Shown here one piece after another: positions 3,001 to 60,921 of a stretch of 64,000 bases of DNA (position 1 is its first letter; each line of letters starts with the position of its first letter). Below the pieces are notes generated by a model. The model searched no databases. It worked only from the letters and a program-made list of their open reading frames with translations, and had not been told where the DNA came from. The translations under genes were made by a program, and so were the position numbers. Source of the DNA: a virus; the IMG/VR virus record IMGVR_UViG_3300029121_000001; one strand, 5' to 3'.

Positions 3001-4260
3001 TAGAAGAATAGCTGCAGGTTCAGCTAGAGTATGCATGACTCTATTATATTTACTACCAACAGGAGTTTTAATAGTATAAATAGCATAGAGTTGAAAGATA
3101 TAAGCAATATAATCTTTATAATCGAATTGAGCACCAGTTCTATAGAAAGCGCCAGGCGTATAAACTAAAAGAGATGTTTCAGTAAAAGATTCAGGTGCCT
3201 GATGATCACTACAACAAATGACATTGATTTTGTCATTAGGCATTCTCTTATTCAATCTTCTGAAACATTCTTTTACATATTTTTGATTAACAAACTTTTG
3301 AACCAGTTGAATATCTCTTTCATAGCCTGTAAATGTAATAAGAGTAAATTCCTTATTCATTTTACGATTTGCTGTAGGGAGAGCAGTTTGACTCATGAAA
3401 TTAGATACTCTAAATTCATTAAAATATTCTTCCTCAGTAAATTCTCTTAGAGTCTTTTTAGACCCTCTTACAAATATAGTATCAAAATCATCTTTATGAA
3501 TACTATATCCAGGCCCCAGAACTGCTTTTACTTCATCACAGATAGCATCAATTTGTTCTTTAGGATATTTACCAAGGCATAGATCATCTGTACCATCAAT
3601 AAATTTCTTAGATCCAAAAGGTCCATTTGCAGTAATTTTGCATGTATGAAATTTATTCTTAATAGTATCAGTAATTGCGTTAACTAGCATTTCACGATAC
3701 TTATAAGGATCCATATCTTGTTCATGAACAGCTTTAGAAGCAAGGCCAGATTTTTCCCAATATGGCTTAAATCTATTGCCATCGCCTACATGAACTTGAT
3801 CAGCCATATCATACTCTTTAATCTTCTTAATGATATTCTTTGCAAGTTCAGCCTCATATTCTTTTTCTACATGATTAAAGAATCTAATAGCAGCAAGAAC
3901 ATGTGCTTCATCATTAAGAGGATATCTACGCTGTTTAGGTAAACCAAATTCACTATCATCTAGCTGTTTTCTCTCAGAAGAAGTCAATTCAACTTCAAAT
4001 AGATATTGGCCAGGATCACCAATATCAATAACAGATTCATTTTGCTGCTTAATATATCTTGTAATACTTTTCTCTACATAATACGATTCAAAGGTTCTTC
4101 TATTAATAACATAAGGTTCAGTCATTGCAAGCATAGAAGACTGATAGTTTGGTGTCAATAGCATAATAGCAGAACCATGACGTTTGTCTTTTAGATTTAT
4201 AGGAAGAAAGAATTGTTTCTTATAGATCATCAAATCTTTCAGATCATTGAGTACAACCAT
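1..4260 (-). CDS. Giant protein, 3'-truncated by the window edge (>=1420 aa). A long N-terminal extension is fused to an RNA polymerase beta-subunit-like region (candidate second, virion-type beta paralog).
   Basis: My own minus-strand translation from ATG 4258-4260 (GGAGG 8 nt upstream) is stop-free down to nt 1. It is missing from the ORF track only because it has no in-window stop. Near the edge, 'DIPKFINGSNFLKLRGNEKTLMIQSA' and 'CEIPVVIVCAYLEGL' resemble bacterial beta '[24 protein letters not shown]' and 'LPATIILRAL', and also the paralog at 62371..63996. Confidence 0.6.
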   Translation of the reverse strand, partial: MVVLNDLKDLMIYKKQFFLPINLKDKRHGSAIMLLTPNYQSSMLAMTEPYVINRRTFESYYVEKSITRYIKQQNESVIDIGDPGQYLFEVELTSSERKQLDDSEFGLPKQRRYPLNDEAHVLAAIRFFNHVEKEYEAELAKNIIKKIKEYDMADQVHVGDGNRFKPYWEKSGLASKAVHEQDMDPYKYREMLVNAITDTIKNKFHTCKITANGPFGSKKFIDGTDDLCLGKYPKEQIDAICDEVKAVLGPGYSIHKDDFDTIFVRGSKKTLREFTEEEYFNEFRVSNFMSQTALPTANRKMNKEFTLITFTGYERDIQLVQKFVNQKYVKECFRRLNKRMPNDKINVICCSDHQAPESFTETSLLVYTPGAFYRTGAQFDYKDYIAYIFQLYAIYTIKTPVGSKYNRVMHTLAEPAAILLSGIADGEIAKRDRDDQFNLERVFQYIIDTDGIDQFTRILAYNDTVAIYEYAKEYGKQYGMNDFFNSRNDFMKAIREEVDYISNLNEEDIPIPDPTPDSLKRISTMGDRLKRRFKSKTIYKLNKLRRDLERGTNDSDKGEALSLQKIGIPETAPDAEPETTAESFTGNTLDQWSQKDYINEGGIVYLFEDSAKYDAQLRKALYKDRMRNDKDVLNMYKKIKADMPFIRYTFVKLSRYNNRNLFYDLSFYNESFFRNMSQINDDDRNNVMRLFKTYIELMERLLNDDSLSNYSKKTVFIPVLDWHHNESQKMWMYKQDINPISVIYYYMKNDVRTLKKIFGDKDIVFLGAKNYFKINFAKDDFTKSANVTKFLQLTKRIINLGYNSPADPDPEGELEDSPKGIALSIIDKVEQSQNVQINDVSKIEKLSTSANIYKDGVPGSVNVAVKKKVVADPSKVASNVTQTNYAKSTKKTVAKVEVKEKEVTKEDNKEDTGVSGTKSANSTSDKEKKDAIVDAVVKAAETSDSEDTATDKLNTEEFKEMIVAVQQDTEENIRVDKTQSSTVVAKQEEFHKKEVDGKSVKELLTVDIAEKELPETKLKVASINDDWEHMTFMNFDKDYDPDSDIIKMLDSMQHWTYPVAVDNIDVKDNSSSEDVLDLWTISCVDYKKTKFTLKIDIPKFINGSNFLKLRGNEKTLMIQSALLPIIKTGLGECQIIGSGGYNKIFVRRFGSRKGQSNPYTNKLIRTLGKYCDKHNDITFVAGDNTKVCTKYELPIDYIDLAQVFNSIEATGLKIFFNQDELRSEYEVDDTKGVPIGVFTIFDEKSKSGKDTIIYYDGTRSTLAAYITEILFYRSKDYMDFYNSTKITGTRCTYSKASILNCEIPVVIVCAYLEGLVKTMNKAGIKYEFVQDMDKDLKYNMDKDYIEFSDGYLVYDVNYSSTMLMNGIKENDTSSYSIKDVNNRRMYLEFLENYTNSLNADGLENSYDCMIDPITKEILER

Positions 4261-8425: not shown

Positions 8426-8432
8426 AATAAAA

Positions 8433-8461
8433 TCCCAGTAGAGATTAAATCTCTACTGGGA
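8433..8461 (+). terminator. Intrinsic terminator
   Basis: TCCCAGTAGAGAT / ATCTCTACTGGGA stem followed by ATATTTTT. Confidence 0.7.
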
Positions 8462-8476
8462 ATATTTTTAAAATAA

Positions 8477-8530
8477 TGTAAATTCAATCAGATATTATAA
8501 ATATGATAGAAAAGTAAGAGCGGCCTTACT
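8477..8530 (+). promoter_or_regulatory. Promoter-plus-5'-hairpin module (class 'GATATTATAAT')
   Basis: TGTAAATTCAATCAGATATTATAAATATGATAG followed by hairpin GTAAG-agcggc-CTTAC. It is homologous in layout to 9857-9906, 27899-27942(-), 33954-33996 and 60512-60552(-). Confidence 0.5.
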
Positions 8531-8571
8531 TAAATCAAATTATAATATCATCCAAAAGGAGATTTTAAATT

Positions 8572-8787
8572 ATGAATATCACAAACGTTACGAACATTTC
8601 TATCATTGTTAATGATAATAATCATGATGATGAATATATCAATGCAATGAGGAATCAAATACGTCAGAATTCTAAAGCTATCAGAAGGGATGCAGAAGAA
8701 TTAAAACGCAAACGCTCCAAATGGAATGAGATACTAGAACATGGATCTGTGTTCCAAATAGCAGATAATTATTTGAGTATCCTTTAA
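8572..8787 (+). CDS. Hypothetical protein (71 aa)
   Basis: ORF with AAAGGAG RBS, bracketed by a promoter module and a terminator. Confidence 0.5.
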   Translation: MNITNVTNISIIVNDNNHDDEYINAMRNQIRQNSKAIRRDAEELKRKRSKWNEILEHGSVFQIADNYLSIL

Positions 8788-8815
8788 TTGAATTTACATT
8801 ATATATATGTATAAT

Positions 8816-8839
8816 GAGTGAAGGACAAAATCTTCACTC
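8816..8839 (+). terminator. Intrinsic terminator
   Basis: GAGTGAAG / CTTCACTC stem followed by a run of about 10 T. Confidence 0.7.
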
Positions 8840-8855
8840 ATTTTATTTTTTTTTT

Positions 8856-8873
8856 GATAATCTGACGCTTCTA
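8856..8873 (+). promoter_or_regulatory. Repeated motif GATAAT(CT)GACGCTTCTA, copy 1
   Basis: A GC-containing 12-mer, GACGCTTCTA preceded by a -10-like ATAAT. The same motif occurs at 9189-9204 and 9534-9551, each time at the head of a small gene. Confidence 0.45.
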
Positions 8874-9193
8874 CTAAAATATGTATAAAAAATATTATAT
8901 CGACTACTTCAACAATTATATTAAATGGGTCATCACATGGTGGTAATATATCTGGAGATCTAGATGCATATAAATATCATATCCTAGAATGTAGGCCAGA
9001 TAAGCTTGGTAGATTTATTTTACCCGGATATTTAGATAATAAGAATCCAACTGTTGATTTTCCATATGATTATACTTGGGCAGGATATATTTATATGCCT
9101 GGTGATATTATGGTAGATAGTAAAAAATATCCATCTATGATACCTGCCTATTCTGAAACTTTACATTGGAAATTCTTTTGTATTCCAAGATAA
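8861..9193 (+). pseudogene. Start-less paralog of 9240..9524 (decayed copy or non-canonical initiation)
   Basis: The frame is open from 8861 to TAA 9191-9193 and encodes '...YKYHILECRPDKLGRFILPGY...FPYDYTWAGYIY...HWKFFCIPR', clearly homologous to the next gene. There is no ATG/GTG/TTG in frame: the TTG start of the paralog is ACA here. Not in the ORF track. Confidence 0.45.
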
Positions 9194-9204
9194 TGACGCT
9201 TCTA
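9189..9204 (+). promoter_or_regulatory. Repeated motif GATAATGACGCTTCTA, copy 2
   Basis: See 8856-8873. Confidence 0.45.
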
Positions 9205-9239
9205 TAAAAATAAAGAACTTTACATCCACTAATGCATCG

Positions 9240-9524
9240 TTGATAATCATAAATGGTAGAGAAATGAAAGAATTATCAGGCGATTATATAGATCTATATA
9301 ATTATCATATTCTAGAATGCAGATCAAATACGTTCGGCAGATTTATTTTACCAGGATATTCTTTCAATAAGCAATCTAATGATTATCCATATGATTACAT
9401 ATGGATAGGATATATATACAAAGATGGCTCATTTAAAATAGGTAATATGAGTTATCAAACTATGCAATATTGCTTTAATGAAACTTTAAATTGGAAAGCT
9501 TTTTGTATTCGTAGATATAGTTAA
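9240..9524 (+). CDS. Hypothetical protein, 'YHILEC...GRFILPGY...YPYDY.W.GYIY' family
   Basis: ORF (TTG 9240 or ATG 9263). It is a paralog of 8861..9193. Confidence 0.55.
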   Translation: MIIINGREMKELSGDYIDLYNYHILECRSNTFGRFILPGYSFNKQSNDYPYDYIWIGYIYKDGSFKIGNMSYQTMQYCFNETLNWKAFCIRRYS

Positions 9525-9533
9525 ATATAATAT

Positions 9534-9551
9534 TATAATCTGACGCTTCTA
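9534..9551 (+). promoter_or_regulatory. Repeated motif TATAATCTGACGCTTCTA, copy 3
   Basis: See 8856-8873. Here the upstream hexamer is a perfect TATAAT. Confidence 0.45.
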
Positions 9552-9556
9552 AAAAA

Positions 9557-9814
9557 TTGGTTGAAAATAGAGTTCAAACTTATTTAACTAAATTTAGCGG
9601 TATTACAAAATATTATCCTCTATCGGTAGTATTATGTGATAAACGGACTGATATAATAAGTATAGAATTATTCAGATCTAATGACAATTTTGAAGTTAAT
9701 ATATATTCTATATCTAAAACATCAACATTACACAAAACTAAATTAACTGGTGTTACATGCTTATTGTATTATGTAACAGACATATATGATGATATAGCAT
9801 TTAATCTTAATTAA
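9557..9814 (+). CDS. Hypothetical protein (85 aa, TTG start)
   Basis: ORF immediately after motif copy 3. A terminator follows. Confidence 0.4.
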   Translation: MVENRVQTYLTKFSGITKYYPLSVVLCDKRTDIISIELFRSNDNFEVNIYSISKTSTLHKTKLTGVTCLLYYVTDIYDDIAFNLN

Positions 9815-17811: not shown

Positions 17812-17887
17812 TGGAGCTGGTAATAGGACTTGAACCTACAACCTGCTGATTACAAATCAGCTGCTCTGCCAATTGAGCTATACCAGC
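17812..17887 (-). tRNA. tRNA-Thr (anticodon UGU), CCA encoded
   Basis: The reverse complement folds as GCTGGTA/TACCAGC acceptor, GCTGA-TTTGTAA-TCAGC anticodon arm and GTAGG-TTCAAGT-CCTAT T arm, ending in TCCA. Confidence 0.85.
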
Positions 17888-17895
17888 ATATTAAG

Positions 17896-17966
17896 TTGCG
17901 CCAGCAGGAGTCGAACCTACGATGGGGGAGTCAAAGTCCCCTGCCTTACCGCTTGGCGATGGCGCA
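17896..17966 (-). tRNA. tRNA-Gln (anticodon UUG), no encoded CCA
   Basis: The reverse complement folds as TGCGCCA/TGGCGCA acceptor (U1-A72), GGGGA-CTTTGAC-TCCCC anticodon arm and GTAGG-TTCGACT-CCTGC T arm. Confidence 0.8.
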
Positions 17967-18120
17967 TTAAATCTAGCGAAGTCACGGCACCCGCTTACAA
18001 GACCTACTGCTTCAGTAGCGACTACCGAAGAGCTGGGAATAATAGGCGAAACAGAAAGGAATGCAGTACATCTCTGGTAAGATGCGAAGCGAAAGCAACA
18101 AGTTTGATGAAACGTAGTCG
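17967..18120 (-). ncRNA. Candidate stable small RNA in the tRNA-Gly/tRNA-Gln spacer
   Basis: A 154-nt spacer, clearly more GC-rich than the genome. It has no tRNA T-loop and no credible ORF. Helices visible on the minus strand are CGACTAC...GTAGTCG, CTACTG-aag-CAGTAG and CATCT-taccag-AGATG. Confidence 0.35.
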
Positions 18121-18196
18121 TGGAGCAGCTGACGAGTCTCGAACTCGCAACAACCTGCTTGGAAGGCAGGTGCTCTACCAATTGAACTACAGCTGC
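18121..18196 (-). tRNA. tRNA-Gly (anticodon UCC), CCA encoded
   Basis: The reverse complement folds as GCAGCTG/CAGCTGC acceptor, CCTGC-CTTCCAA-GCAGG anticodon arm and GCGAG-TTCGAGA-CTCGT T arm, ending in TCCA. Confidence 0.85.
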
Positions 18197-27431: not shown

Positions 27432-27870
27432 CAATAACACCTCTTCTTTTATAATTGGTATTATAATCACCATTCATATGAGCATAGTCTGGAATAGAAA
27501 TGAAATCAATTTTTCCTTCATTATTTAAATCATTCCAAACTTTACAAGCATATTGATAATTTGTAAATTCTGGATATCTATAAGATTTTTTATTGAACCA
27601 GTCATATAGAATTTGCTCATCTACACTATCAAGTTTATCTTCGTATTTTCCAGCATGTGGAAAATATTTATTTGTGCAAAGACATATTGCTGTATCAATA
27701 TATACTCCTTTAATATGAAAATGAGGTATAGTTCCTTCATTTCCATTCACCATTAATTTACATTTTCCAGCATTCTTAAATTTTATAGCATTTGGCCCTG
27801 TTTCAGGAGCAATACCAACCTCATGAATAGCAACGTATTTTGATCCATCAAATTCTACTTTTACAATCAT
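27418..27870 (-). CDS. Hypothetical protein (150 aa) with 'PHFHI' motif
   Basis: AGAGG RBS. 'NEGTIPHFHIKG' is reminiscent of the DUF4160 'PPHFH' signature (weak). Confidence 0.5.
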   Translation of the reverse strand: MIVKVEFDGSKYVAIHEVGIAPETGPNAIKFKNAGKCKLMVNGNEGTIPHFHIKGVYIDTAICLCTNKYFPHAGKYEDKLDSVDEQILYDWFNKKSYRYPEFTNYQYACKVWNDLNNEGKIDFISIPDYAHMNGDYNTNYKRRGVIDDFI

Positions 27871-27898
27871 TGTAAATTACCTCTTTAATTTTAATTTT

Positions 27899-27942
27899 AG
27901 ATAAGAATGTATCTTATCTTTCAATATTATAATATCTAATTG
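27899..27942 (-). promoter_or_regulatory. Promoter-plus-5'-hairpin module (class 'GATATTATAAT')
   Basis: The minus strand reads CAATTAGATATTATAATATTGAAAGATAAGatacattCTTATCT, nearly identical to 9866-9890. Confidence 0.5.
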
Positions 27943-27944
27943 AA

Positions 27945-27975
27945 AAGGAAGTAGAGAGAAAATCTCTACTTCCTT
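27945..27975 (-). terminator. Intrinsic terminator after terL
   Basis: AAGGAAGTAGAGA / TCTCTACTTCCTT stem with a T run on the minus strand. Confidence 0.7.
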
Positions 27976-27983
27976 TATATATT

Positions 27984-28797
27984 TTAACTTAATCTATTAA
28001 ATATATCACTTAGATTTCCTACTAGTCTTGGATCTTTATTGTGACTAGATCCATCATCACCATACCAAATTTTATTCAGATCAGATCCAATGTCAGTATA
28101 TCCAACATCTTCTTGTTTATCTAGATAATCTTTGGGAATATGATATGCATTAGCGACAGCTTGTCTACCAACAGAACTTTTCTTAATTCTATTAAGGGCA
28201 GCTTCATCTTCATTAATCTGAGCAAGATGGAAATCTTCCATACTCATTCTCTTAGATTTACTTAGATATTCTAGCTGATCATTTACCATATGTGTAGTTG
28301 CATCAGTATCATCTGCAAATACACTAGGATCTAGTTTTTCTCCTTCTTCACCATATTCTTCTTCAAGACTATAAGAAGTTTCATCATAATGATCATCAGT
28401 ATAAATTTCAGTTTTCATAATATGGAATCTTGTAGCAAGATCTTCTCCATAATAGAAAACATATAGAGCCCATAGATAAGAGAACACCAAGTCATCATGT
28501 GCATCATCTGCATGTTCTACTTTACCATTAGGCTTAACAACCATTGTGCAAAGTTCATCATAAATATCTTTACTATTAAATTTATCTCTATGATGCTGAA
28601 CTCTTTGATGAAGTAGTTCAATAAGCTGATTACGCTTATTCTTTCCAGAAGTAGAACCATAAACTTTACATTTTTTAGGTCTACGTTTGACTGTCACACC
28701 ATCAAATTGCTCTTCATCAATACGATCTTTAATCTCATAGTATAGATTTTTCTTAATAGAAGTTTTAATAAGCATCTGCAGAACAGATGAACCGAAG
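27984..28797 (-). CDS. terL: Terminase large subunit, exon 3 of 3 (nuclease domain C-terminal part)
   Basis: 'FGSSVLQML...' continues the 'IENNG' of exon 2 and aligns ungapped to T4 gp17 'ELNSTGVSVAKSL'. 'DDAHDDLVFSYLW' matches gp17 'EGYHDDLVMSLVIFGW'. The exon start is uncertain by about 8 nt. Confidence 0.8.
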
Positions 28798-29182
28798 CCA
28801 TTTAGTTTAGATATAATCGTCTACATTATATCTCTTGGTTAATTCCAAGTCACGTCCATTACAGACAGTGATCAGATCATGTGTCCACCCTATATATCTT
28901 ATAGGGGTGTATTTTTCTTCCTTCCATTATAGACTTGAAGGTTCTACCTCTCCCGTCAGGAGATGATCGTTGAGCGTTATCCCATACGGATATTTCGCGG
29001 CTATACAAGGGCTTGTTAATTCTGACTTAGGATTTGACCATATCAGAATCCTTATAATTTCTTTCTACTTTCGTAACTATCACGCACATCTTTTCAGATC
29101 ACGTTGTAGTATATAAGGTTCTTGACCCTCTTCATAGCAATTAACACAATGAAACTTGCAAATTACTCTACAAGCTGTGACA
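28798..29182 (-). mobile_element. Group I intron (ORF-less), terL intron 2
   Basis: Stops in all frames. The minus strand carries 'AATTGCTATGAAGAGGG' (P-like) and 'GCTCAACGATCATCTCC' (R-like, 28959-28975) with a complementary ATGATC (28875-28880). The block 'GGTAGAACCTTC' is shared with terL intron 1. Boundaries are ambiguous because AATGG is repeated at both ends. Confidence 0.75.
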
Positions 29183-30389
29183 ATCGCACCATTGTTCTCG
29201 ATATTTATAATAGCATTCTTTGCATAAGTGGTTGTAAATTGATATATCATATCTGCCAATTCTGGCATTGTGATATAATTGCATTTAAATGTAGCAATAA
29301 CTTTAGTAGTTTGAGAATCAATGACTGTAATAGCAGACGAGTCTTTATGAATACCAGAAGAAACGTCAACACCAATAATGAAAGGATACATACTATTGAT
29401 AGGTACTGTATCCCAAATCTTCATTATAAATTGTCCAGCTTTACCGAATCTCAAAATACTCTTAGGTTCTTGTTTTACTTGAGCACCGATTATATCTAGA
29501 TCTTCTCTATTGAAAGGACTATTATCTGCAGTCTTAGCCCATTCTAGTAGAACCTCACGACGAATCTTAGTCCAGTCTTTCTGTAGATCCTTAACCATGC
29601 GATCAAAGTACTCAGTACCATTACCAAGCATTTGATATGTATATCTGATATGCATAAAGTTAGAATCTTTATTGGAATCAATAACTGCCTTTAATTCATC
29701 ATAACTTAGATCATAGAAACTTTCATTCCACTCAGTACCATTCAATCTAACATGATTAGCGAATTGACCTTCTCTAGTAGTCAGATCTCCAGGAGTAGTA
29801 GTAATTAGAACTCCATAAGGAGAACCATTAGCTTTAGCATTCTCGGATGCTTTAGAGAATGCAGGCATTGCGGCTGTATAAACGATATCATTATAAGGTA
29901 GAAAAGCAAACTCATCGTAATACTGTATAGCAACAGTAGCACCACGTCCTGCACCTTCTGCTAGAGCAGGAGTTCTAGCACCAGGCAGTGTAGTAATCAG
30001 ATTTCTATTAATAGGATTCTGTAATGTTTCTGCAGTATTAGGAACTCTAATTTGCTTTCCATCTCTATCTAATTGAGCTTCCATTCTCAGATATTCTGGC
30101 AATGCAGCTCTTAGATTTTTCATTGTTCTAAGGTTATTCTTAGAGTCATCATGCTTCTTATTAGCAAATATAATTCTAGTATTAGTAGCTCCAAAGTTAA
30201 ATACCCATAGATACCAACATAGAGCACTAACAGTTTTACCATGCTGTCGAGGGAATTCTACAAATTGGTTTATATTATATACGAACATATAAGCCATGGC
30301 TAGATTACCACGACTTAATTCGAATCTTTTACCAGCTCCAACAGATCCACCTTCTGTTGGAATGCGAATAATTTCTCTGCAGAAATTAA
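29183..30389 (-). CDS. terL: Terminase large subunit, exon 2 of 3 (ATPase + start of nuclease)
   Basis: Walker A 'FPRQHGKT', Walker B 'IQYYDEFAF', 'LITTTPGD' and 'IIGVDVSSG' match T4 gp17 'SRQLGKTT', 'MIYIEDCAF', 'IITTTPNG' and 'ATLDCSEG'. The frame is open upstream of the track's ATG (30297) to about 30389. The last ~35 codons of the track ORF are intron read-through. Confidence 0.85.
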
Positions 30390-30771
30390 CGTATCTACGT
30401 TATTTTTTATATTAACGCTTGTTAATCTTATGTGTTACATAAGTTCAGACTATATCTTCATCTCTTTAGAGATGTGCTATCACTTCGAGCCTCTTTTAAG
30501 GTTCTACTTCCATTTCAGGAATAGTCGTTGATCCTATACTATATTTTATATTCGCTGTGTATAGGAAGCTGATTAAACATTGTCAATAGACTTTAGGACT
30601 TATTACAATGAGAAATTGAGAATGTAATAAGCTTTTATTTCACCATGGTCCATCTCTCTACTTGTTTCTGTCTTTCGACACCTGATTGTAGGTAAGAGAG
30701 CTTTAGCCTTTCCCAGCAATTCAATAGCATTCAACACTATGTCACCATAATGAGGGGCATTTCAGTTTACC
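30390..30771 (-). mobile_element. Group I intron (ORF-less), terL intron 1
   Basis: The minus strand carries 'AATTGCTGGGAAAGGCTAAAGC' (P-like, 30698-30721), 'GATCAACGACTATTCC' (R-like, 30518-30533) and 'GAAGATATAGTCTGAAC' (S-like, 30443-30459). GACTAT/ATAGTC can pair as P7. Splicing after U 30772 and after G 30390 restores the frame. Confidence 0.8.
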
Positions 30772-30997
30772 AATAGTTAACCATGCATTCTCTTAGAATA
30801 CGCATCTTCATTGGTTGCGGAAGATTTGGATCTCTTGGGTCAACACCCATTAATCCTGCATCATATATCAAGAGAAAGAATTTATTATTCTTGATACCAC
30901 GAGCTTTAAGAAAATAATACATATTCATAAAGCTTTGATTGGTTGTAGAATCTTGATAATATACAGTAATTGGTGTTGCTGGATTAGTAACAACCAT
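30772..30997 (-). CDS. terL: Terminase large subunit, exon 1 of 3
   Basis: ORF 'MVVTNPATPITVYYQD...RECMVNY'. When spliced it reads '...MVNYFNFCREIIRIPTEGG...' into exon 2. RBS AGGAGAG. Confidence 0.75.
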
Positions 30998-31091
30998 TGT
31001 AATTACTCTCCTTTCTATATTATTAATTATAAGGTTTCAAAATTACAAAAACATTTATTTAATTTCTTAATAATATAGGAGGAATATTATT

Positions 31092-31709
31092 ATGCTTGTG
31101 AGTTTGGATAACCGTTTTAAAATTCTTGCATTGGTGGTTTTAATTGTACTATTTATTATTATCTGTATTCTTCAGTATATTTCAAAACGAGAATCTGATA
31201 AATATAAAAAGGTAATTTTAAGTCCCAATGGAGAACTATATAAATTTATAAGAGAAGAATGTGAGAATGAAGAAACTATTAGAAATGGTATCATTCTTTC
31301 TATGTCTGACTTTAGTATATTCCATGATATTGTAGATTATTATATCACAAATAAAGTAAAAGATAGGATTAAAAATGAAGGATATGGATGGCTAAATTTA
31401 GATAATAAATATATATCCATGTATGAATCTACATATCCTATTGAATTTGCTGTTTCAAAGATTAGTGGAACTACTGTAATTACTGATCTTTTATATGATA
31501 AATATATTTCTATGATCTACGATGGTATTCATTATGGGATGCAAGCAGAGCAAGAAGCAGTTCTATATTATACAAAGCATGGTGAAGATGCTGAAGGAGA
31601 TGATTTGCATCCTATTGAAAAAGCAGAATCTTCTGACAGTGAAGATAATGATCATCAAGTAGATTATGACGCATTATATCAATTTGGAACTATAGAAGAC
31701 GAAAAATAA
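31092..31709 (+). CDS. Membrane protein with N-terminal TM helix and acidic C-terminus (205 aa)
   Basis: 'FKILALVVLIVLFIIICILQYI'. GGAGG RBS. Confidence 0.55.
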   Translation: MLVSLDNRFKILALVVLIVLFIIICILQYISKRESDKYKKVILSPNGELYKFIREECENEETIRNGIILSMSDFSIFHDIVDYYITNKVKDRIKNEGYGWLNLDNKYISMYESTYPIEFAVSKISGTTVITDLLYDKYISMIYDGIHYGMQAEQEAVLYYTKHGEDAEGDDLHPIEKAESSDSEDNDHQVDYDALYQFGTIEDEK

Positions 31710-42294: not shown

Positions 42295-42468
42295 ATGCGA
42301 AATGTAGTATCTTTTTACTGCCCTGATTGCAATGAAAACTTTGAAGTTCCTGTAACTCAATTTGGAGAAGACTATATTAAGACTTTTGGAAAATGCAGAT
42401 GCGTTTGCCCACATTGTGGAAATAATGTAGAAAGTGATAGAATCATTGAAGTATCTAGTAAGGAGTAA
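42295..42468 (+). CDS. Cys-rich mini-protein 1 (57 aa; CxxC ... CxCxCxxC)
   Basis: AGGAGGA RBS. 'MRNVVSFYCPDCNENFEVP...GKCRCVCPHCGNN'. It falls below the ORF-track length cutoff. Confidence 0.5.
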   Translation: MRNVVSFYCPDCNENFEVPVTQFGEDYIKTFGKCRCVCPHCGNNVESDRIIEVSSKE

Positions 42469-42473
42469 TCTTC

Positions 42474-42653
42474 ATGAATGTAGTAGCTTTTAAATGTGAT
42501 GATTGTGGTGTAGTCACAGAAATTCCTTTTAATAAAGCTATACAAGTAATATTGAATTCAAGAGGATATGTACAATGTTTATGCATCTGCTGTGGTAAAG
42601 AATTAACCAGTAATTTGATTGCAAAAGAGGGAGAAATTAAAGATGACAGATAA
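42474..42653 (+). CDS. Cys-rich mini-protein 2 (59 aa), paralog of mini-protein 1
   Basis: AAGGAG RBS 8 nt upstream. 'MNVVAFKCDDCGVVTEIP...VQCLCICCGKE'. It overlaps the glycosyltransferase start by 11 nt. Confidence 0.5.
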   Translation: MNVVAFKCDDCGVVTEIPFNKAIQVILNSRGYVQCLCICCGKELTSNLIAKEGEIKDDR

Positions 42654-46678: not shown

Positions 46679-47587
46679 ATGGCTAATAAGACTACTGCAG
46701 GCAATGGCCTGAATTATATTAAGATGCCTCGTAGTGTCACAGAGTATACTCTGATGAAGGGTGTCACTGACTTCTCTAACCTGAAGCAGTTTGACCTCTA
46801 TGAGACTGGTTATTCTTTTCTGACTGTTGTTTCTGTTCCTAAGTTCATGACTCTTCTTGCTGCTCAGGATTCTCGTATTAAGAATCTGCAAGAAGGTTTT
46901 GTTCATATTCTGGAAGGCGAATTCCGTGGCCTAGATGGTATTCCTGATATCACTGCTGATGCTGGTTCTATTAGTAACGGTGTCAATGAGATGCAGGTTA
47001 TCAATAATGTCAATATGGATACTTCTATTCAGGTTAGTATGTCCTTCTTTGAGCGTTCTGGTGGTCTACTGACTAACTACCTGAATTATTATCTGACCGG
47101 TATTAAGGATCCTTATTCTAAGGCTAAGACTTATCATGGTCTGATTGGTAGTTCTGTTACTGATCCTGGTCCTGATTATGAGGTCTTCACTTTCCTGTAT
47201 TATGTAACTGATAATACTATGCGTTCTATTGAGAAGGCATATCTGCTGTGCAATGCTCAGCCGACTGCTGCTCCGATGAGCCAGATGTATAACTCTACTC
47301 ATGGCGATATTCAGTTCCAGGAAATTAGCATGACGTTTAACTGCTATCCTATCATGGGTGATACAATTAACCTATATGCTAACATGATGCTGCAGAATGA
47401 CCTGACTACCGATAAGAAGGATCGTATGCTGATTCTTGATTCTAACAACTATAAGTATGATGTTTATAGTTCTAAGGTTGAGAATACTGGCTTTGGCCTG
47501 GTTGGTGATATTCTGTCTAATAATGGTATCGCTGCTGCTGTTAAGTCTAAGACATCTGCTGGTGTTCAGCTGGGTCAGTCTCGCTAA
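46679..47587 (+). CDS. Tail tube protein (by position and size)
   Basis: 302 aa, starting 19 nt after the sheath gene and sharing its codon bias. A terminator follows. Confidence 0.55.
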   Translation: MANKTTAGNGLNYIKMPRSVTEYTLMKGVTDFSNLKQFDLYETGYSFLTVVSVPKFMTLLAAQDSRIKNLQEGFVHILEGEFRGLDGIPDITADAGSISNGVNEMQVINNVNMDTSIQVSMSFFERSGGLLTNYLNYYLTGIKDPYSKAKTYHGLIGSSVTDPGPDYEVFTFLYYVTDNTMRSIEKAYLLCNAQPTAAPMSQMYNSTHGDIQFQEISMTFNCYPIMGDTINLYANMMLQNDLTTDKKDRMLILDSNNYKYDVYSSKVENTGFGLVGDILSNNGIAAAVKSKTSAGVQLGQSR

Positions 47588-47622
47588 GTTAATTCTTGAA
47601 TCCTCCTTGAATTAATATAAAA

Positions 47623-47648
47623 TCCCGATAGGATTGCTCCTATCGGGA
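47623..47648. terminator. Bidirectional terminator between convergent genes
   Basis: TCCCGATAGGA / TCCTATCGGGA stem with flanking A and T runs. Confidence 0.7.
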
Positions 47649-47655
47649 TTATTTT

Positions 47656-50004
47656 TTAATCAGCTAGATCTCCAGGGTTAAGTCCATCCATAGAATGATC
47701 GATATTATTATTCATCTTAATAGTATTTCTAATTTCTTCTATATCGCTATCGGATAGATAAGAAGGAATAAGTCTACGAATAACCTGTTTCTTAAATTCT
47801 TGTTTAGCTCCATCTTCTTCACTAGCCATTTCAATTTCTGTAATAGAATCTGCATATTGCATAGCAGTCTGAAGAAGTTGAGAACCCTGAGTCATACTTA
47901 AGAATGCAGGGATAGGTAGACTTACATTAAGATCTACATCTTCATTATATTCGAACTTATAAATCTTAGTAAAGATAGTAGATAGGAATTCTTCCATCTT
48001 TGCTTGTCTCTTAAGAACATTACGCAGGAGCTTTGCATTAGTCATTGTATATCTAACAGCGAAGTCCATGCTAGTAGAGCTATTAACAATTTCTAGAGGA
48101 ACATCTGTTGCATTAACAGCAGATTCTTCTAGATTTCCCATTAAATCTTGAGGGAAATCAAATTGCTGACCAGCTTGTGTATCAAATGTAATTGGAGCTT
48201 CACCATTAGGACCAACAGGAATAACAAAGTCATTAAATCTACCAACAATATTAAGAATATTATTGACAGATTCCATCTGACGAATACCGAAGTTACCTTT
48301 CTTAATAGTAGCAACAACATTTAGAAGAGATTGTGCTGTATTAGTATCAAGAGATTGCTTCACATAATATACTCGACGATCGAATCCTCTGGTAGTCCAA
48401 CCAAGAACAGAAGTTGTATTAAGCATAATCCATTGTTTAGCCGATACAAGAGAATTCCATAGATCACTGATACCTCTATGAGTAATAGGATCATCATTGA
48501 ATTTCAAATGATGAATATCGTCAGAAGGAATGAAAACAATATCAAGATCTGGAGTATGAGCAAGCTGATTATATTTATCATTAAACTTCAGAAGTAGATA
48601 TAGTTCTCTCTTAAGATCAACATTGGAATTGATAAATGCTGCATCAATATTCTTAGAAACATTAGCAGCTAAAGTTCTCAGAAGCATATCCTTCTGATTA
48701 ATTTCATCTTCATCATATGTAGCGGATCCACCGATAGGACCATCGCTAAACATACCAGTGACAGAATTATAGCCAGTAATATTTCCAGTAGAATTGATAT
48801 CAATATCTTGCTCAGCATTATATCTGATATAATAGCAACCAAATAGAATATCCTCGATGTAGATAGGAATAATTCTATCATGCTTAATATCAGTAAGAAC
48901 AGCACCATTTAGATTAATTTTATAATCCTTATCTTCATTAGGATCGATCAATCCATCAGATGCTGCTTTATCATCTTCCCATTCAATACTATCACCAATA
49001 GTATTATCAAATTTAACTTCAGTAGAATTCTTTCCATTCTTTTTCAGATGATCGTTAAAAGATTCACCTGTTTCATTAATAATAGAATAAGATTCAGAGA
49101 GACCTCTAAACTTTTTATTTACTTTAGCCTTATGAGTTCTAAGATAATACTCATTAGCAACAGCACTTTCAATCAGCATTGATGTATCAAGATTGACTTT
49201 AATACAGATATCTCCATTTTCTGTTGTAGCTGCAACAGCGCTTGCTTTGGGTTTCTTAGTATTTTTCTCATTTGAATAAATTGTAGATTCATGATTAAAA
49301 GTATTTGCATATCCTGTATTCTTTCTTCGCTTCATAAGCTCAGCAAATGCAGAAGAATAAGGAACACAATAAACAAATTGTTCTCCATACTTAGAAGTAT
49401 TTTCATACCATTTTTCTGCTCTATTAGAAAGATCGTATTTCTTAATCATTTCATCAATATTAGCAGTGATAGCAGCATTCTTAGAAGATGTAGGATTCTC
49501 ATACTTAGGTCTAACGTTAAGAAATTCTTTAGTATAAGAATCAGAGCAAAGAACTGCATCCCTTTTAATATCTAGAGCAACCTGCAACTTAGGCATATAC
49601 TTACAGATTAGATCAAATTCATTATCAAGTTCAGTGATCCACTTAGTCTTTGCATAAGTGTCCATTAGTGAAGCTTGAATACTAGAATCTTGGAATAATG
49701 CAGAGATATCATCTCCCGTTCCTTTACCAAAAGATTTATTAAGCTTAGCAGAAGCCGTATTTGTTTCAGGCTTCATAAGCTTCATAATAATCTTAGAGGT
49801 ATTAGATAGATTCTGAATATCACTATCTTCCTCAGTAGACTTCTTAATAGCATCATCAAGCTTATCAGAAAGCTGAGATCTAAGATCATCAGAAGTAGTA
49901 GTGGTAGAATATGTAGTTGTATATAGATCACTAACCTGTCGATTTAAAAGATCTAGCGAATCATTAATTTTCTTTTGATTAGCTGTCTTTTTCTCATTAG
50001 CCAT
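47656..50004 (-). CDS. Large virion-module protein (782 aa), possibly portal
   Basis: The call rests on size, position next to the sheath/tube genes and unbiased codon usage (so not the major capsid protein). I could not verify any portal motif. Confidence 0.35.
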   Translation of the reverse strand: MANEKKTANQKKINDSLDLLNRQVSDLYTTTYSTTTTSDDLRSQLSDKLDDAIKKSTEEDSDIQNLSNTSKIIMKLMKPETNTASAKLNKSFGKGTGDDISALFQDSSIQASLMDTYAKTKWITELDNEFDLICKYMPKLQVALDIKRDAVLCSDSYTKEFLNVRPKYENPTSSKNAAITANIDEMIKKYDLSNRAEKWYENTSKYGEQFVYCVPYSSAFAELMKRRKNTGYANTFNHESTIYSNEKNTKKPKASAVAATTENGDICIKVNLDTSMLIESAVANEYYLRTHKAKVNKKFRGLSESYSIINETGESFNDHLKKNGKNSTEVKFDNTIGDSIEWEDDKAASDGLIDPNEDKDYKINLNGAVLTDIKHDRIIPIYIEDILFGCYYIRYNAEQDIDINSTGNITGYNSVTGMFSDGPIGGSATYDEDEINQKDMLLRTLAANVSKNIDAAFINSNVDLKRELYLLLKFNDKYNQLAHTPDLDIVFIPSDDIHHLKFNDDPITHRGISDLWNSLVSAKQWIMLNTTSVLGWTTRGFDRRVYYVKQSLDTNTAQSLLNVVATIKKGNFGIRQMESVNNILNIVGRFNDFVIPVGPNGEAPITFDTQAGQQFDFPQDLMGNLEESAVNATDVPLEIVNSSTSMDFAVRYTMTNAKLLRNVLKRQAKMEEFLSTIFTKIYKFEYNEDVDLNVSLPIPAFLSMTQGSQLLQTAMQYADSITEIEMASEEDGAKQEFKKQVIRRLIPSYLSDSDIEEIRNTIKMNNNIDHSMDGLNPGDLAD

Positions 50005-50748: not shown

Positions 50749-51351
50749 TTAAACTACAAGTATATTAGAAAAGATATCTATTGTTAATTTAAACTTCTTT
50801 TTTAATACAGAATATCTAATAGTCTTTACTCTGTAATCTAGAGGATTAAGTATATAATCATAGATTCTTAGAGAAGCAGTATCTCCTTTAGACAAAGGAG
50901 TAATCGCTTTACTAGATGGTACTATATATCTAGAAGAATCAGTAGATACGTTTATCTTACTAATATTAGTACTTGCGACAGTTCCTGTAAATCCATCAAT
51001 GTTATAACAATCGGGTTCATAATAAATACACTGAACTTTATTGTCAATTCCATTAAATAGATCAAATGCTCTTATTAATGCATCATGTTTTACATTCCAT
51101 CCAGAGAAATATAAATTAGAAAATATCCTCTGTTCTGGTTTTTTCATCGACATAAAATCATTAATAATAGCTGTAAATTTGAATACATAGATTACAGGAA
51201 TTCTGATAATTCCATAAAAAGTTTGATCTGCATCCATAATGACTATAGTTCCAGGAAAGTGAGTCATATAGCCATCAGTTTTAATGAATCCAGAACAACT
51301 GTTTATGATAGGTTGCACATAATTACAAAAATCTTCAAAATTATCATTCAT
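50749..51351 (-). CDS. Hypothetical protein (200 aa) translationally coupled to polB. It may be a degenerate remnant of the polymerase C-terminal part.
   Basis: ATGA overlap with the polB exon 2 stop. 'PIINSCSGF' and 'IVIMDADQTF' loosely recall motif B 'KxxxNSxYG' and motif C 'YGDTDS', but the spacing is far too short and the Lys is absent. Confidence 0.45.
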   Translation of the reverse strand: MNDNFEDFCNYVQPIINSCSGFIKTDGYMTHFPGTIVIMDADQTFYGIIRIPVIYVFKFTAIINDFMSMKKPEQRIFSNLYFSGWNVKHDALIRAFDLFNGIDNKVQCIYYEPDCYNIDGFTGTVASTNISKINVSTDSSRYIVPSSKAITPLSKGDTASLRIYDYILNPLDYRVKTIRYSVLKKKFKLTIDIFSNILVV

Positions 51352-51833
51352 CGAAATGCTTCCTTTTCAATAGTTTCTTTTAATTTTCCTTTTACTTCAT
51401 TGTCAAGTGTTCCATATAAATAAAATCCAGTAGAATTATTTCCATAATTGTTTTCGTTAAAACTAATAGCATCGATCATATTATCTTTAACAAAATAGAT
51501 TGCCTGCTGATTAAGACCTTCATCATCAATTCCTCTGCCATAAGAAGGATTAAATTTGAAGTATTCTCTAATATCATCCATGCAATCATACACATTACCA
51601 AGTCTCATCCATCTTCTGCAAAATTCAAGGATGTTTCCACTAATCATATTCTCAAGGAATTCACCACCACGAGAATACTTAGCTACATCATCCTTCGAAG
51701 AATACATATCAGGATGCTCATTAAGAGAGAAAGGCTTAGTAGGATCATTAGGATCTTCGATAATAATTCTACCAATCTGAGTATTAGGAGCAAGATTATT
51801 CTCAAGAATAATAGAGGGATAAAGAGATGAGTA
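51348..51833 (-). CDS. Family-B DNA polymerase, exon 2 (motif A onward; ends before motif B)
   Basis: 'YSSLYPSIILEN' joins exon 1 '...NNAVDFD' to give the canonical motif A 'DFDYSSLYPSII' (DxxSLYPS). Confidence 0.85.
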   Translation of the reverse strand, partial: YSSLYPSIILENNLAPNTQIGRIIIEDPNDPTKPFSLNEHPDMYSSKDDVAKYSRGGEFLENMISGNILEFCRRWMRLGNVYDCMDDIREYFKFNPSYGRGIDDEGLNQQAIYFVKDNMIDAISFNENNYGNNSTGFYLYGTLDNEVKGKLKETIEKEAFR

Positions 51834-53057
51834 CACGTTTCTTCACAAAGGTCGTTAATCTTTGCAGTTCTCTTATGAACTTCTCTAGGAGTTACCTAGA
51901 AGGTGAGACTATATCACGATCCATTACTTACTTAATAAGCATTGGGACCCTTTATACTTCGGTACCACTTGGCCCTAATTCCTTTCGGAATAGTCGTTGA
52001 ACTCTGAATATATTAGAAATTATACTTAGATGAGATATTAGTATAATATTTTCTTGTATAAACTTTTCGCGCACAATCTACAACAGAATCTGAATCATCA
52101 TATCCAAAATATTTAAGAGCATTTCTACAATGATCATTTACTGTACTATTTCCAATATTATTATTAGAAAAATATGTACATAAATTTTCAATTTCTTCTG
52201 TAGAGAATTTCTTTCCTTTTCTTGAATGAAAAGTATAATCTTTTGATATATCTTTCCAACAAGTTTTCTTTTTAATATCAGATACAATAGTTTCTGTTAA
52301 TCCATTTCCAACCATTAATGATATTTGAAGATTAGTATATTGATCCATTGCTAATAAATCACATACATGTCTAATATCATCTTCATTTAAATCACTTGGC
52401 CTTTTATGAAGTCCAGTCATAAAAGCATGCCTTTGATTTTCACTTCTTGTGCACCATTCTAAATTAAAAATTCTATTATCAAATTTATCACCATTTATAT
52501 GATTAACTTGAAATATATTACAATTTGGAATTGGGTAAAATGACATCATGACAAGCCTATGTAATTGAACCATTACTTGGCCATGATCAGTAGATAGATA
52601 AACAAACAAATATCCAGATCCACTAACCCCAGGACTTAAATAAATATTCAAATATTTATTAAATACCCGTCCACAATTACTGATCATATAGTAATCATAA
52701 ATTCCTGGAATAATATTTTGAGTTATATCGATAAACATTTCTCCAAAGAATTTATCACAATAAGTTGGTTGGAAATAAATACATTGATCTTTAAATTTTT
52801 GTATATTAATTCACCTCTTTTTATTTGAAAATATCTCATCATATATTCAGGTGCTGATTAGACATTACTAATAGACTTTAGGACTATATATCTATCTCTT
52901 ATTCAATATATAGCTTTTATTTCACCATGGTCCATCTCTTCACTTATTTCTATCTTTCGATTCTATTATTTTTAATAGCAGAAGAGCTTTAGCCTTTTCC
53001 AGCTTTGGCAATAAAGTTTTCATTTCTATATTCCTATAAAAATGCGACTACTAGTTA
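51834..53057 (-). mobile_element. Group I intron with embedded HNH homing endonuclease gene, inserted in polB motif A
   Basis: The minus strand carries 'GCTGGAAAAGGCTAAAGCTC' (P-like, within 52983-53010), 'GTTCAACGACTATTCC' (R-like, 51987-52002) and 'GTGATATAGTCTC' (S-like, 51905-51917). The 5' exon ends in U (53058) and the intron ends in G (51834). Long blocks are shared with terL intron 1. Confidence 0.85.
52013..52738 (-). CDS. HNH homing endonuclease (NUMOD4 + HNH_3 type), intron-encoded
   Basis: 'YYMISNCGRVFN' (NUMOD4-like) and 'VNHINGDKFDNRIFNLEWCTRSENQRHA' (HNH core). Confidence 0.85.
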   Translation of the reverse strand: MFIDITQNIIPGIYDYYMISNCGRVFNKYLNIYLSPGVSGSGYLFVYLSTDHGQVMVQLHRLVMMSFYPIPNCNIFQVNHINGDKFDNRIFNLEWCTRSENQRHAFMTGLHKRPSDLNEDDIRHVCDLLAMDQYTNLQISLMVGNGLTETIVSDIKKKTCWKDISKDYTFHSRKGKKFSTEEIENLCTYFSNNNIGNSTVNDHCRNALKYFGYDDSDSVVDCARKVYTRKYYTNISSKYNF

Positions 53058-54614
53058 ATCGAAGTCCACTGCATTATTTGCTAATAAAGTAGGTCTACCA
53101 TTTACATGCATCATTACAATTTCTGCATTATGAGTAGGATCACCAACCATAGCACCAGGGAATTTGGTAGTTGGTTTCTCATTCCATAGATTTTTGTTGT
53201 TACCAAGAATATATCCATACTCAAAGAATTCTTTACAGAAACGATTTGCAAGATATACTGATTGTCTATGACATTTAGCGTAATTGGTATTATTAACTAG
53301 ACATTTAGTAAACACATATTCTAGATCATTGGTACTAGATTCAATACATTTTTGAACAATAACATCCATTACGTTATAGAAAGAAAATGTTTTAAAATCA
53401 ATATAAGGAAGCTTACCAAGATCACTAGTAATATGAGAATAGTCTAGCTTCTTAACACCTGCTACAATCTCACCAATTGCATCTAGTTTAAAGCTAGGAT
53501 ATCTACCACGACCTTTTCTTCTAGATGCAAATTCAATCATCTGATCAAGCCATACAGTATAGCTAGAAACGTTTACATAGTCACCTCGTTCTTCATAATT
53601 ATTTCTATTACGCTCATCAATATAAAACTTTAAGAATCTTAATTCAATTCTAGGATCACAGATAATATCCAAAGGATCATATCCAAGATTTTCAATTCTA
53701 TGAATAATATAAGCAAGGTCGAATGCCATGTTCCATGCTTCAATAAAGTCAGGAACTGTTTGATTAATTACATTAAAAGCCGCTTGAATAAGATCGATTT
53801 CGTTATCAAAGAATTCAAGTCGATAAGTCATTTTATCGACTCCAAATTTAACAGCCTTTTTATATCCACCAACTGCATTGATAACAAAATTCTTAAGTTC
53901 ATCTTGAAATCCAGATTGCCTAGTATATCCCATATATCTTTCAATCAAAGGATTATTTTGATCATTAAGAATAAATTGATATACTATTCCATGTGCATCA
54001 TCACAATATGCAATTGCATTAATAGGAACTTCACCAGGTTCAGGAAACTGTCCGTTACAATAAGCAGTATCAGTTTCAATATCAATGAATCCTTTAGTCA
54101 ACTTAAAGACATTGTTCTTATATGATAAATTAAATAGAAATTTATAATAGTTTTCAATTTGAATATCAGACATAAAGATTCTAGGATCTGTATGAAGTTT
54201 TCTATTTTCTGCAAATTGGTTATTAGCTCTATTCTCTTCATATTCTTCTACTCTATCAGTTACTTCTGCAATAGCTTTCAGAATATCAGCATATTTACAA
54301 GTACAAGGAATAACCTTTTCTTTTTCAATAAAGAATTTATTATAATCTACTTCATCTTCAGGATTCTTAACTTTATAAAACGTATATTTTGGTTCCTCAA
54401 TAATATGATATTTTTTTGCTCCGGTTGTATTGTCCCTATAAAGGATACCAATAAAATCTTTAACATAAGATCCATCATCTAGTTTAGTTCTAGGAGTATA
54501 TGCTGTATTAATTACAGTGATATTAGAACCTTTAGGATATCCAGGAATTAATAATTCATACTGCTTATTATCAATAATATAAGATCTTCTCTTACGTTCT
54601 TCTTGATTGATCAT
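53058..54614 (-). CDS. Family-B DNA polymerase, exon 1 (3'-5' exonuclease domain and N-terminal palm)
   Basis: ExoI 'FIDIETD', ExoII 'WNMAFDLAYI', ExoIII 'YNVMDVIVQ', then 'FPGAMVGDP...NNAVDFD' leading into motif A. Confidence 0.9.
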
Positions 54615-60482: not shown

Positions 60483-60511
60483 GATAGACTCTCCTTAAAA
60501 TGAATATTTGA

Positions 60512-60552
60512 GAATAGATCTTTTCTATTCTATCATAAATATAATATCTGCT
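60512..60552 (-). promoter_or_regulatory. Promoter-plus-5'-hairpin module (class 'GATATTATA')
   Basis: The minus strand reads CAGATATTATATTTATGATAGAATAGaaaagatCTATTC. Confidence 0.45.
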
Positions 60553-60567
60553 TGAAACTAAAAATAA

Positions 60568-60600
60568 AAGGTAGGTAGAGATACCGCCTCTACCTACCTT
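60568..60600 (-). terminator. Intrinsic terminator closing the 60.6-60.9 kb ORF-free region
   Basis: AAGGTAGGTAGAG / CTCTACCTACCTT stem with TTTTATTTTT on the minus strand. Confidence 0.7.
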
Positions 60601-60921
60601 ATGCATTGAGAAGTCTATTCCAGAAAACCATGATTAAGAAAACATTAAAGATCAAGATGAAATAGAAAATCCGTACAACGTGATCCCGAGAGTTTAAGGA
60701 GAAAAATGTAGATACACACAATCCAAGAGAGTTACCAAATATATTAGGCGAGTAAAGCTGAACTGATTACTTTAGCCCTTGATATAAGGAGGTTATTATG
60801 AAAAGGTATGGAACTAAATGTGAGCATAGCAAAAAGAAATTATGACCGAAACCAACCGTGAATGCTTTGCTTTTTAGGTTTAGCACTTTCTCCTCAATGC
60901 ATTATAATAAAGTGATATAGT

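Follow-up and report, generated by a model that had tools for sequence, protein, structure and literature searches.

How can one large terminase subunit (TerL) come from a locus that appears as three separate open reading frames (ORFs)? The question is raised by a 64,000-nucleotide stretch of viral DNA, IMG/VR record IMGVR_UViG_3300029121_000001 (called the window below and numbered from its first letter), in which minus-strand ORFs at 30767-30997, 29080-30297 and 27984-28775 each carry part of TerL and are separated by two ORF-free gaps. The locus is very probably a single gene for a 747-aa TerL of the T4 type, interrupted by two mobile, IA-like group I introns that have no ORF of their own. 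Exon structure, mobility pattern, conserved fold and kinship to certified group I introns were each observed for both introns.

One terminase in three exons

A preliminary description of this DNA, made from its letters alone, had assigned the three ORFs to one TerL in three exons. Its coordinates are right, and the terminase profiles match the joined product continuously. The phrog_2 match runs unbroken over residues 14-702 and phrog_32359 covers residues 12-187, while the Pfam domains Terminase_6N and Terminase_6C lie at residues 121-373 and 414-587. Because single continuous terminase matches cross both joins, the three segments encode one protein. All the ATPase and nuclease motifs that had been listed are present in it: PRQHGKT at residue 122, IQYYDEFAF at 230, ITTTPG at 271, IGVDVS at 414, IENNG..FGSSVLQML at 472 and HDDLV at 577.

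With the joins placed as argued below, exon 1 (30769-30997, 229 nt, on the minus strand like every part of the gene) starts with the ATG at 30997 and ends at U30769, the first base of codon 77. Exon 2 (29187-30386, 1200 nt) runs from A30386 to G29187, the first base of codon 477, and supplies the ATPase domain with the first half of the nuclease domain. The remaining nuclease domain and a C-terminal extension come from exon 3 (27984-28798), whose 815 nt include the TAA stop.

Homologs preserve the uninterrupted form of the protein. The protein database holds dozens of unbroken relatives of about 745 aa, at most 79% identical, that read NYWYF and ENNGGFGSS at the two sites; ENNGGFGSS occurs in nearly all homologs, and the tryptophan at the first junction is invariant in more than 40. 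The same database also contains many truncated TerL "proteins" of 441-675 aa whose ends fall exactly at the two joins. Just past the first junction, the exon sequence differs from that of relatives mostly by synonymous changes, which indicates that it is translated there. The gaps themselves contain stops in every frame, as had been described, with 5-14 stop codons per frame on both strands and a longest open stretch of 52 codons.

If the gaps stayed in the transcript, the locus would not yield one TerL of ~86 kDa but three separate polypeptides (76, ~400 and ~270 aa) that assemble, or it would be a decaying pseudogene. Several features fit such a reading: the first bases of intron 1 create an in-frame UAA that ends exon 1, exon 2 has an internal ATG at 30297, and the Rfam model RF00028 finds no match. 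It is nevertheless very improbable, since neither exon 2 nor exon 3 begins with a start codon or a Shine-Dalgarno sequence, and the 31 codons upstream of the ATG at 30297 align with homologs, most of their differences from relatives being synonymous. The breaks fall inside conserved motifs, the second within the nuclease fold, and the gaps hold a ribozyme fold under compensatory selection. Moreover, TerL is essential, and the split architecture recurs in many genomes (for example in the P0066 cluster, with 149 member sequences).

The gene belongs to an uncultured jumbo phage. Megablast of the TerL locus against GenBank phages gave no match, so the phage is uncultured; its closest relatives are IMG/VR genomes of 160-270 kb, all from one metagenome, and at least one related contig carries the sample label "gut metagenome". 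Among the related loci (given L numbers here), L023 is about 95% identical to the window in DNA. Among cultured phages, those of the AR9/PBS1-like group of Bacillus and jumbo phages of Staphylococcus are closest in TerL, with 32-38% identity.

Fold and kinship of the two introns

Intron 1 (30387-30768, 382 nt, with a short P6 loop) was aligned in 8 copies with their ORFs cut out, and intron 2 (28799-29186, 388 nt) in 12 copies from three subfamilies with 68% mean identity. Pairing partners slid along the alignment served as controls, together with 500 shuffles for intron 2. Unguided, RNAalifold folds intron 2 into 90 pairs, finds double compensatory changes in 39 of these, and recovers P7 (GAUCA with UGAUC), the P4-P6 domain, P7.1, P7.2, P8 and P9. 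With P3 added by hand as a pseudoknot crossing the recovered P7, 96.4% of alignment cells are paired versus 35-47% in the slid controls, and 40 pairs show double changes versus 2-8. None of the 500 shuffles reaches the observed values, and the covariation score is 0.366 compared with at most 0.117 in the controls. One P3 pair (columns 61/420) switches between U-A and A-U. An earlier, hand-assigned P4 of intron 2 (GCUAU with AUAGU, columns ~131-135) was dropped because its partner varies without compensation; RNAalifold pairs GCUAUG with UAUAGC instead.

For intron 1, the unguided fold contains P1, P2, P3, P4, an extended P5, P6, P7.1, P7.2, P8 and P9, and it was P7 that was added by hand as a pseudoknot crossing the recovered P3. 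The result is 97.4% of cells paired (32-40% when slid) and 34 pairs with double changes (1-6 when slid). Compensatory substitutions also occur within the window clade of this intron, in P6, P7.1, P7.2, P8 and P9, which argues that intron 1 is not decaying.

Helices P3 to P9 thus follow the canonical group I order, and both the P3/P7 pseudoknot and the P4-P6 domain are present. The catalytic 3' domain spans 30447-30528 in intron 1 (P7, P7.1, P7.2, P3' as GAUAGC, P8 and J8/7 as AAGAUAU) and 28874-28970 in intron 2 (P7, P7.1, P7.2, P3' as AAUACA, and P8). In intron 1, the 5' strand of P7 comprises A30528, a bulged C30527 and G30526-U30521, and the 3' strand lies at 30453-30447; in intron 2, A28970, the bulged C28969 and G28968-A28964 face UGAUCU at 28879-28874. 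P7 therefore reads A-(C)-GACUA paired with UAGUC-U in the one and A-(C)-GAUCA paired with UGAUC-U in the other, invariant within each family and differing between the two by two compensatory pairs. A bulged C followed by a G-C pair is, at the level of sequence, the geometry of the guanosine site, and both introns have it. The P-, R- and S-like strings quoted in the preliminary description are present, and its P7 pairings, GACUAU with AUAGUC and GAUCAU with AUGAUC, are real.

Subgroup IA, the phage type, is defined by the extra hairpins P7.1 and P7.2 between P7 and P3'. Both introns carry the two hairpins at this place, each with compensatory changes, and have long P5, P6 and P9 extensions, a combination that classes them as IA-like on sequence features.

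Some observations speak against two group I introns; they come from the covariance models described here and from the splice sites treated in the next section. An Rfam search of the whole window with the gathering score as cutoff, and a looser one of 27800-31200 at E<=10, returned no group I or group II match. The preliminary description had proposed the Intron_gpI search as a check, and taken at face value its silence would have wrongly dismissed real introns. RF00028 does recover 4/4 TerL introns of phage AR9, at 71-93 bits. It also detects, at 52.8 bits over the full model, a compact 285-nt intron that lies exactly at site 1 in L154 and has sequence in common with window intron 1 in P1, P4, P7 and P9. 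L155, an ORF-bearing sister of intron 1, scores only 17.6 bits, and this difference from L154 indicates that long insertions in P5, P6, P7.1-7.2 and P9 depress the score. After the AR9 and L154 controls, RF00028 silence was rejected as proof of absence; the part of the control that used motif loci was uninformative, since most motif matches are chance.

Two further covariance models of the P7-P9 domain were built separately, R1 from the intron 1 family only and R2 from the intron 2 family only. R1 finds window intron 1 at 30422-30538 with 112.8 bits and 4/4 AR9 introns at 37-52 bits. R2 finds window intron 2 at 28831-28978 with 148.6 bits, and it also matches window intron 1 (34.7 bits), 4/4 AR9 introns (24-32 bits) and intron 1 of L161. 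R1 gives window intron 2 only 13 bits (E~0.5), its third-best match in the window, at the right place and in the right register, and the E-values of both models are rough, as they come from a shortened calibration with effective sequence numbers of 1.1-1.6. Recovery of 4/4 certified AR9 introns at the right positions by separately built models is a sound test of group I membership. Taken with the covarying folds and with the presence and absence of the introns in relatives, the R1 and R2 matches bear out the earlier call of two ORF-less group I introns.

A shared core string points to the same two places: TCAACGA(N15-22)GTAGAACCT occurs exactly twice in the window versus 0 times expected from shuffles. 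These 16 bases are found in at least 119 viral contigs, and the idea that they mark a large family was rejected, as the R2 domain is present in only 7/74 loci and the others match by chance. Scanning viral sequences with the 5' motif of intron 1 turned up only three already known contigs.

Another kind of element, such as a group II intron, an intein, a translational bypass element or a small transposon, could in principle occupy the gaps. If cut one base earlier, window intron 2 would start with GUGCG, which resembles the group II 5' consensus. This start is not conserved, however, and other subfamilies have GAGCA or GCGAA; there is no Rfam group II domain match, and group II introns are typically longer than 380-390 nt. 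An intein is excluded by the stops in every frame, known bypass elements are about 50 nt long, and the fold together with the R1 and R2 searches ties both elements to group I. Elements of these other kinds are the least probable of the explanations considered.

Where the exons would be joined

The rule for group I introns is a U.G wobble at the 5' splice site. In the proposed mechanism, each transcribed intron would adopt the group I core fold, take up guanosine at P7 and leave the transcript through two transesterifications. In the second step, the terminal intron G (omega-G) takes the place of the exogenous G in P7 (PMC3679873). The exons would be joined as ...AACUAUUGGU to AUUUCUGC... and as ...AACAAUGGUG to GCUUCGGU..., and a single TerL would be translated; with a slash for the junction, the predicted ligated sequences are AACUAUUGGU/AUUUCUGCAG and AACAAUGGUG/GCUUCGGUUC. 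Splicing itself and the exact ligation points in the window TerL are predictions, made from pairing potential and homology.

At site 1, the guide sequence GAAAU-GCC (30756-30763, minus strand) pairs GCC with exon GGU to form P1, in which U30769 wobbles with G30758, and pairs GAAAU with the 3' exon AUUUC to form P10. The P1 pairs G-C, G-C and U.G, plus one intron pair, are invariant in 8/8 copies, and this invariant wobble places the 5' cut after U30769. P10 covaries with the start of the 3' exon in a fixed register: GAAAU pairs with AUUUC in the window clade, AUAG with CUAU in L155, GAAG with CUUC in L168, and GAAAU with ACUUY in L154 and L169. In L154, L155, L161, L163, L168 and L169, a G stands before the junction that P10 defines and the product restores W-[Y/F]-[F/Y], so that these six G-ending copies act as a positive control for the P1/P10 method.

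The window, L023, L011, L012 and L167 have an A at this position (...GUUA/AUUUC), and their product restores NYWYF. Compared with L161 (...GUUAAGAUGUUUG/AUUU), the window clade appears to be short of the last nine intron bases. The start of exon 2 is accordingly placed at A30386 by pairing and homology, which makes A30387 the last nucleotide of intron 1. Enumeration of in-frame, stop-free junctions with U at -1 and a terminal G gave none that fits the window clade at site 1. At the junction predicted by homology, intron 1 of this clade thus appears to end in A and not in G, and the guanosine-binding pair is unchanged despite the terminal A.

At site 2, the guide sequence GU-CAC (29177-29181, minus strand) pairs CAC with exon GUG (29189-29187), and its GU lies opposite G28798-C28797 of the 3' exon. 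Across the family, the exon bases G-N-G (positions 2 and 3 of one Gly codon and position 1 of the next) pair with intron C-N'-C. Three Watson-Crick states occur in the middle: U-A (window), A-U (L014 group) and C-G (L159, L161 and L050 groups). When all in-frame, stop-free junctions were enumerated, none offered U at -1 together with a terminal G throughout the family. GGNG/intron...G/GY-UUY is the sole junction that has a terminal G in 6/6 subfamilies and restores the universal NNGGF. In the window it reads G29187/C29186...G28799/G28798, and a counterpart of the terminal G28799 is present in all six subfamilies. In five subfamilies the partner of the G at -1 is C, and in L080 it is U; a U.G wobble is lacking, so intron 2 appears at this homology-predicted junction to have G in place of U at -1.

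The preliminary description had placed the cuts elsewhere in the same two introns, after U30772 and G30390 at site 1 and as GG/...GG/ at site 2. These would give ...NYFNFCRE... and ...ENNGFGSS... and predict the junction sequences UAUU/UUAAUUUC and AAUGG/CUUCGG. The site 1 cut is the only one in the window that has U at -1 and a terminal G and keeps the length unchanged, so it obeys both splice-site rules; a few distant homologs (P0022, P0031, P0034) also have the single-Gly ENN-G form. It is off by 3 nt, however, turning the invariant W-Y into F-N and losing the tryptophan that all of more than 40 homologs retain, and it makes no use of P1, in which all eight copies keep the U.G at U30769. 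The distance from G30390 to the exon is 1 nt in L167, 2 nt in the window and 3 nt in L011, so this segment cannot be coding and G30390 is not a conserved splice site; the same cut in L011, L012 and L167 gives a stop codon or the wrong frame. The site 2 cut is off by 2-3 nt: its product lacks one Gly of the ENNGGFGSS that the closest intron-less allele (92% identical, with GG) encodes, and it would leave a single exon base pair in P1. Cuts at these positions are therefore unlikely, and the junctions after U30769 and G29187 are preferred.

It is possible, at somewhat less than even chances, that these are functional introns breaking both splice-site rules, in which the site 2 family would cut after a G:C pair and the window clade at site 1 would ligate beside a terminal A. 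Mutational work on model introns predicts that both changes are strongly deleterious, and a literature search for natural introns that depart from the U.G or the terminal-G rule returned nothing usable. If such splicing does occur, P1-P10 alignment would suffice to set the two splice sites in vivo. Confirmation of the junctions by cDNA would make them a case of natural group I splicing without a U.G wobble or without a terminal G.

Gain, loss and known relatives

Mapping of the joined TerL protein onto 32 related loci shows that each intron is gained or lost independently. Only intron 2 is found in L007 (93% identical) and only intron 1, in a 1.2-kb form, in L011 (92% identical); L012 carries the pair, and many relatives are free of both. 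Uninterrupted sites are clean, reading AAC TAT TGG TAT TTT at site 1 in L007 and GAA AAC AAT GGA GGT TTT GGA at site 2 in L011.

Some copies of intron 1 also bear a homing endonuclease gene. In L011 and L155, an ORF of about 300 aa lies in the P6 loop, and ORFs of similar size occupy the same place in L012, L167 and L169. The L011 ORF, the one that was profile-scanned, is an HNH endonuclease (phrog_2081, E=4e-40) that matched PHROGs and had no match in Pfam; the L155 ORF aligns with it by eye. Presence and absence at the same site in close relatives is thus combined with a homing endonuclease in some copies, and intron 1 of the window is an ORF-less relative of this endonuclease-bearing mobile intron. 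Both window introns have lost, or never had, a homing-endonuclease gene. Size variants of intron 2 were seen as well: L013, L014, L028 and L029 have an extra AT-rich 80-100 nt without an ORF in the P6 extension loop (alignment A1, columns ~227-330), and L033 has a version of about 1 kb.

The preliminary description had read the introns as a means of splicing-dependent control of packaging. Nothing supports this, and independent presence and absence in near-identical phages looks like the behaviour of selfish mobile elements. On the best reading, the introns do not regulate packaging but are selfish passengers, kept because they are able to splice.

The window contains a third group I intron, at about 53057-51834 on the minus strand, which R1 matches at 51879-52007 with 66 bits (E~1e-11) and which both Rfam and the preliminary description missed. 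It lies between ORFs at 53055-54614 and 51348-51836 and splits a family-B DNA polymerase within motif A, with exon 1 ending in ...VDFD and exon 2 reading YSSLYPS; the canonical junction GAU/...GUG/UAC restores D-Y-S-S-L-Y-P-S. Its inner ORF (52013-52738) encodes a 241-aa HNH endonuclease (phrog_59, E=5e-38). The 3' tail of this intron is nearly identical to that of the TerL site 1 intron in L154 and L169, which suggests from sequence that one intron lineage moved between DNA polymerase and TerL genes.

Other candidate sites in the window gave no introns. The ORF-free gaps at 8426-8860, 42327-42618 and 60495-60921 are free of intron motifs, and the genes beside them are not split; a weak R2 match at 47581-47710 is a terminator hairpin at a gene end. 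Downstream of a 435-nt ORF-free gap, three small open frames lie in tandem on the plus strand at 8861-9814. Their starts (SDAS...) and their ends (...ETLHWKFFCIPR, ...ETLNWKAFCIRRYS) resemble one another, as in tandem paralogs. Three tRNA genes are clustered on the minus strand at 17815-18196 (Rfam tRNA, 60-73 bits).

Further observations concern the related and more distant contigs. Related phages carry an RtcB RNA ligase gene (PF01139) 1-2 kb downstream of TerL, at 4740-5830 in L154, 6380-7019 in L155, 3523-4588 in L157, 4895-5923 in L167 and 5883-5989 in L168. It is probably there for tRNA repair, and no mechanistic link to the introns was seen. L079, a 113-kb viral contig, has three R2 matches within 1 kb at 2889-3824 (57, 34 and 32 bits) and so probably holds another gene with three closely spaced group I introns. 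On an unrelated contig, L106, a type II hammerhead ribozyme (RF02276, 45.8 bits, above the gathering score) at 3073-3136 came up through a chance motif match.

Phage introns of type IA2 in the Michel and Westhof classification, such as those of T4 td, nrdB and nrdD and Twort orf142, have the canonical U.G and terminal G. The window introns resemble them in having P7.1 and P7.2 between P7 and P3', an R element UCAACGACUA and an S element AAGAUAUAGUC, in lying in protein-coding genes of virulent phages, and in the kinship of ORF-bearing and ORF-less versions. Unlike them, the window intron 2 family apparently has a G-C pair at the cleavage site, and intron 1 of the window clade apparently ends in A.

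Structural and replication genes of phages are familiar sites of group I introns. Multi-intron TerL genes are already known, and the window is a further case of this arrangement. The nearest cultured TerL relative, AR9/PBS1 (KU878088, AR9_g121; 35-38% identity), has its TerL coding sequence deposited in five pieces and, like the window, shows an essential gene broken by several short, mostly ORF-less group I introns. Its four introns are grouped within the region for the ATPase core (residues ~223-277 in window TerL numbering), whereas the window sites are at codons 77 and 477. AR9 introns also score strongly with RF00028, while the window introns have much larger peripheral extensions and are invisible to it. 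In Staphylococcus jumbo phages the TerL insertions lie at ~176-283, again unlike the window sites. Two of these phages, MarsHill (L151, 1446-2047) and AH12 (L153, 1416-1927), have TerL as two coding sequences around insertions of ~500-600 nt with no intron annotation. RF00028 gives no match to these insertions and R1 only weak ones of 22-32 bits at a GC content of 0.17-0.26, so they may be unannotated introns or low-complexity noise.

Of 52 Bastillevirinae genomes, 5 have a split TerL, with two or three introns in some cases and with splicing demonstrated in vitro (PMC11878797). Together with the five exons of AR9, this makes the earlier statement that multiple introns in a packaging gene are uncommon an overstatement. 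The Bastillevirinae introns are mostly IA2- or IA3-like, many have HNH endonucleases, and phrog_2081 is listed as intron-encoded (PMC11878797). Relatives of the window have the same phrog_2081 in sister copies of intron 1, and the DNA polymerase gene is a target in both groups. The differences are that the Bastillevirinae are another phage lineage with other insertion sites, and that splicing is experimental there and predicted for the window.

TerL is a standard marker for classifying tailed phages, yet at this locus a gene caller yields three fragments and a standard Rfam scan stays silent. Intron-split TerL and DNA polymerase genes are therefore probably under-recognised in uncultured gut jumbo phages. 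Among phages more than 90% identical, each intron and the HNH gene have come and gone independently, which offers a clear snapshot of homing and decay within a jumbo-phage population.

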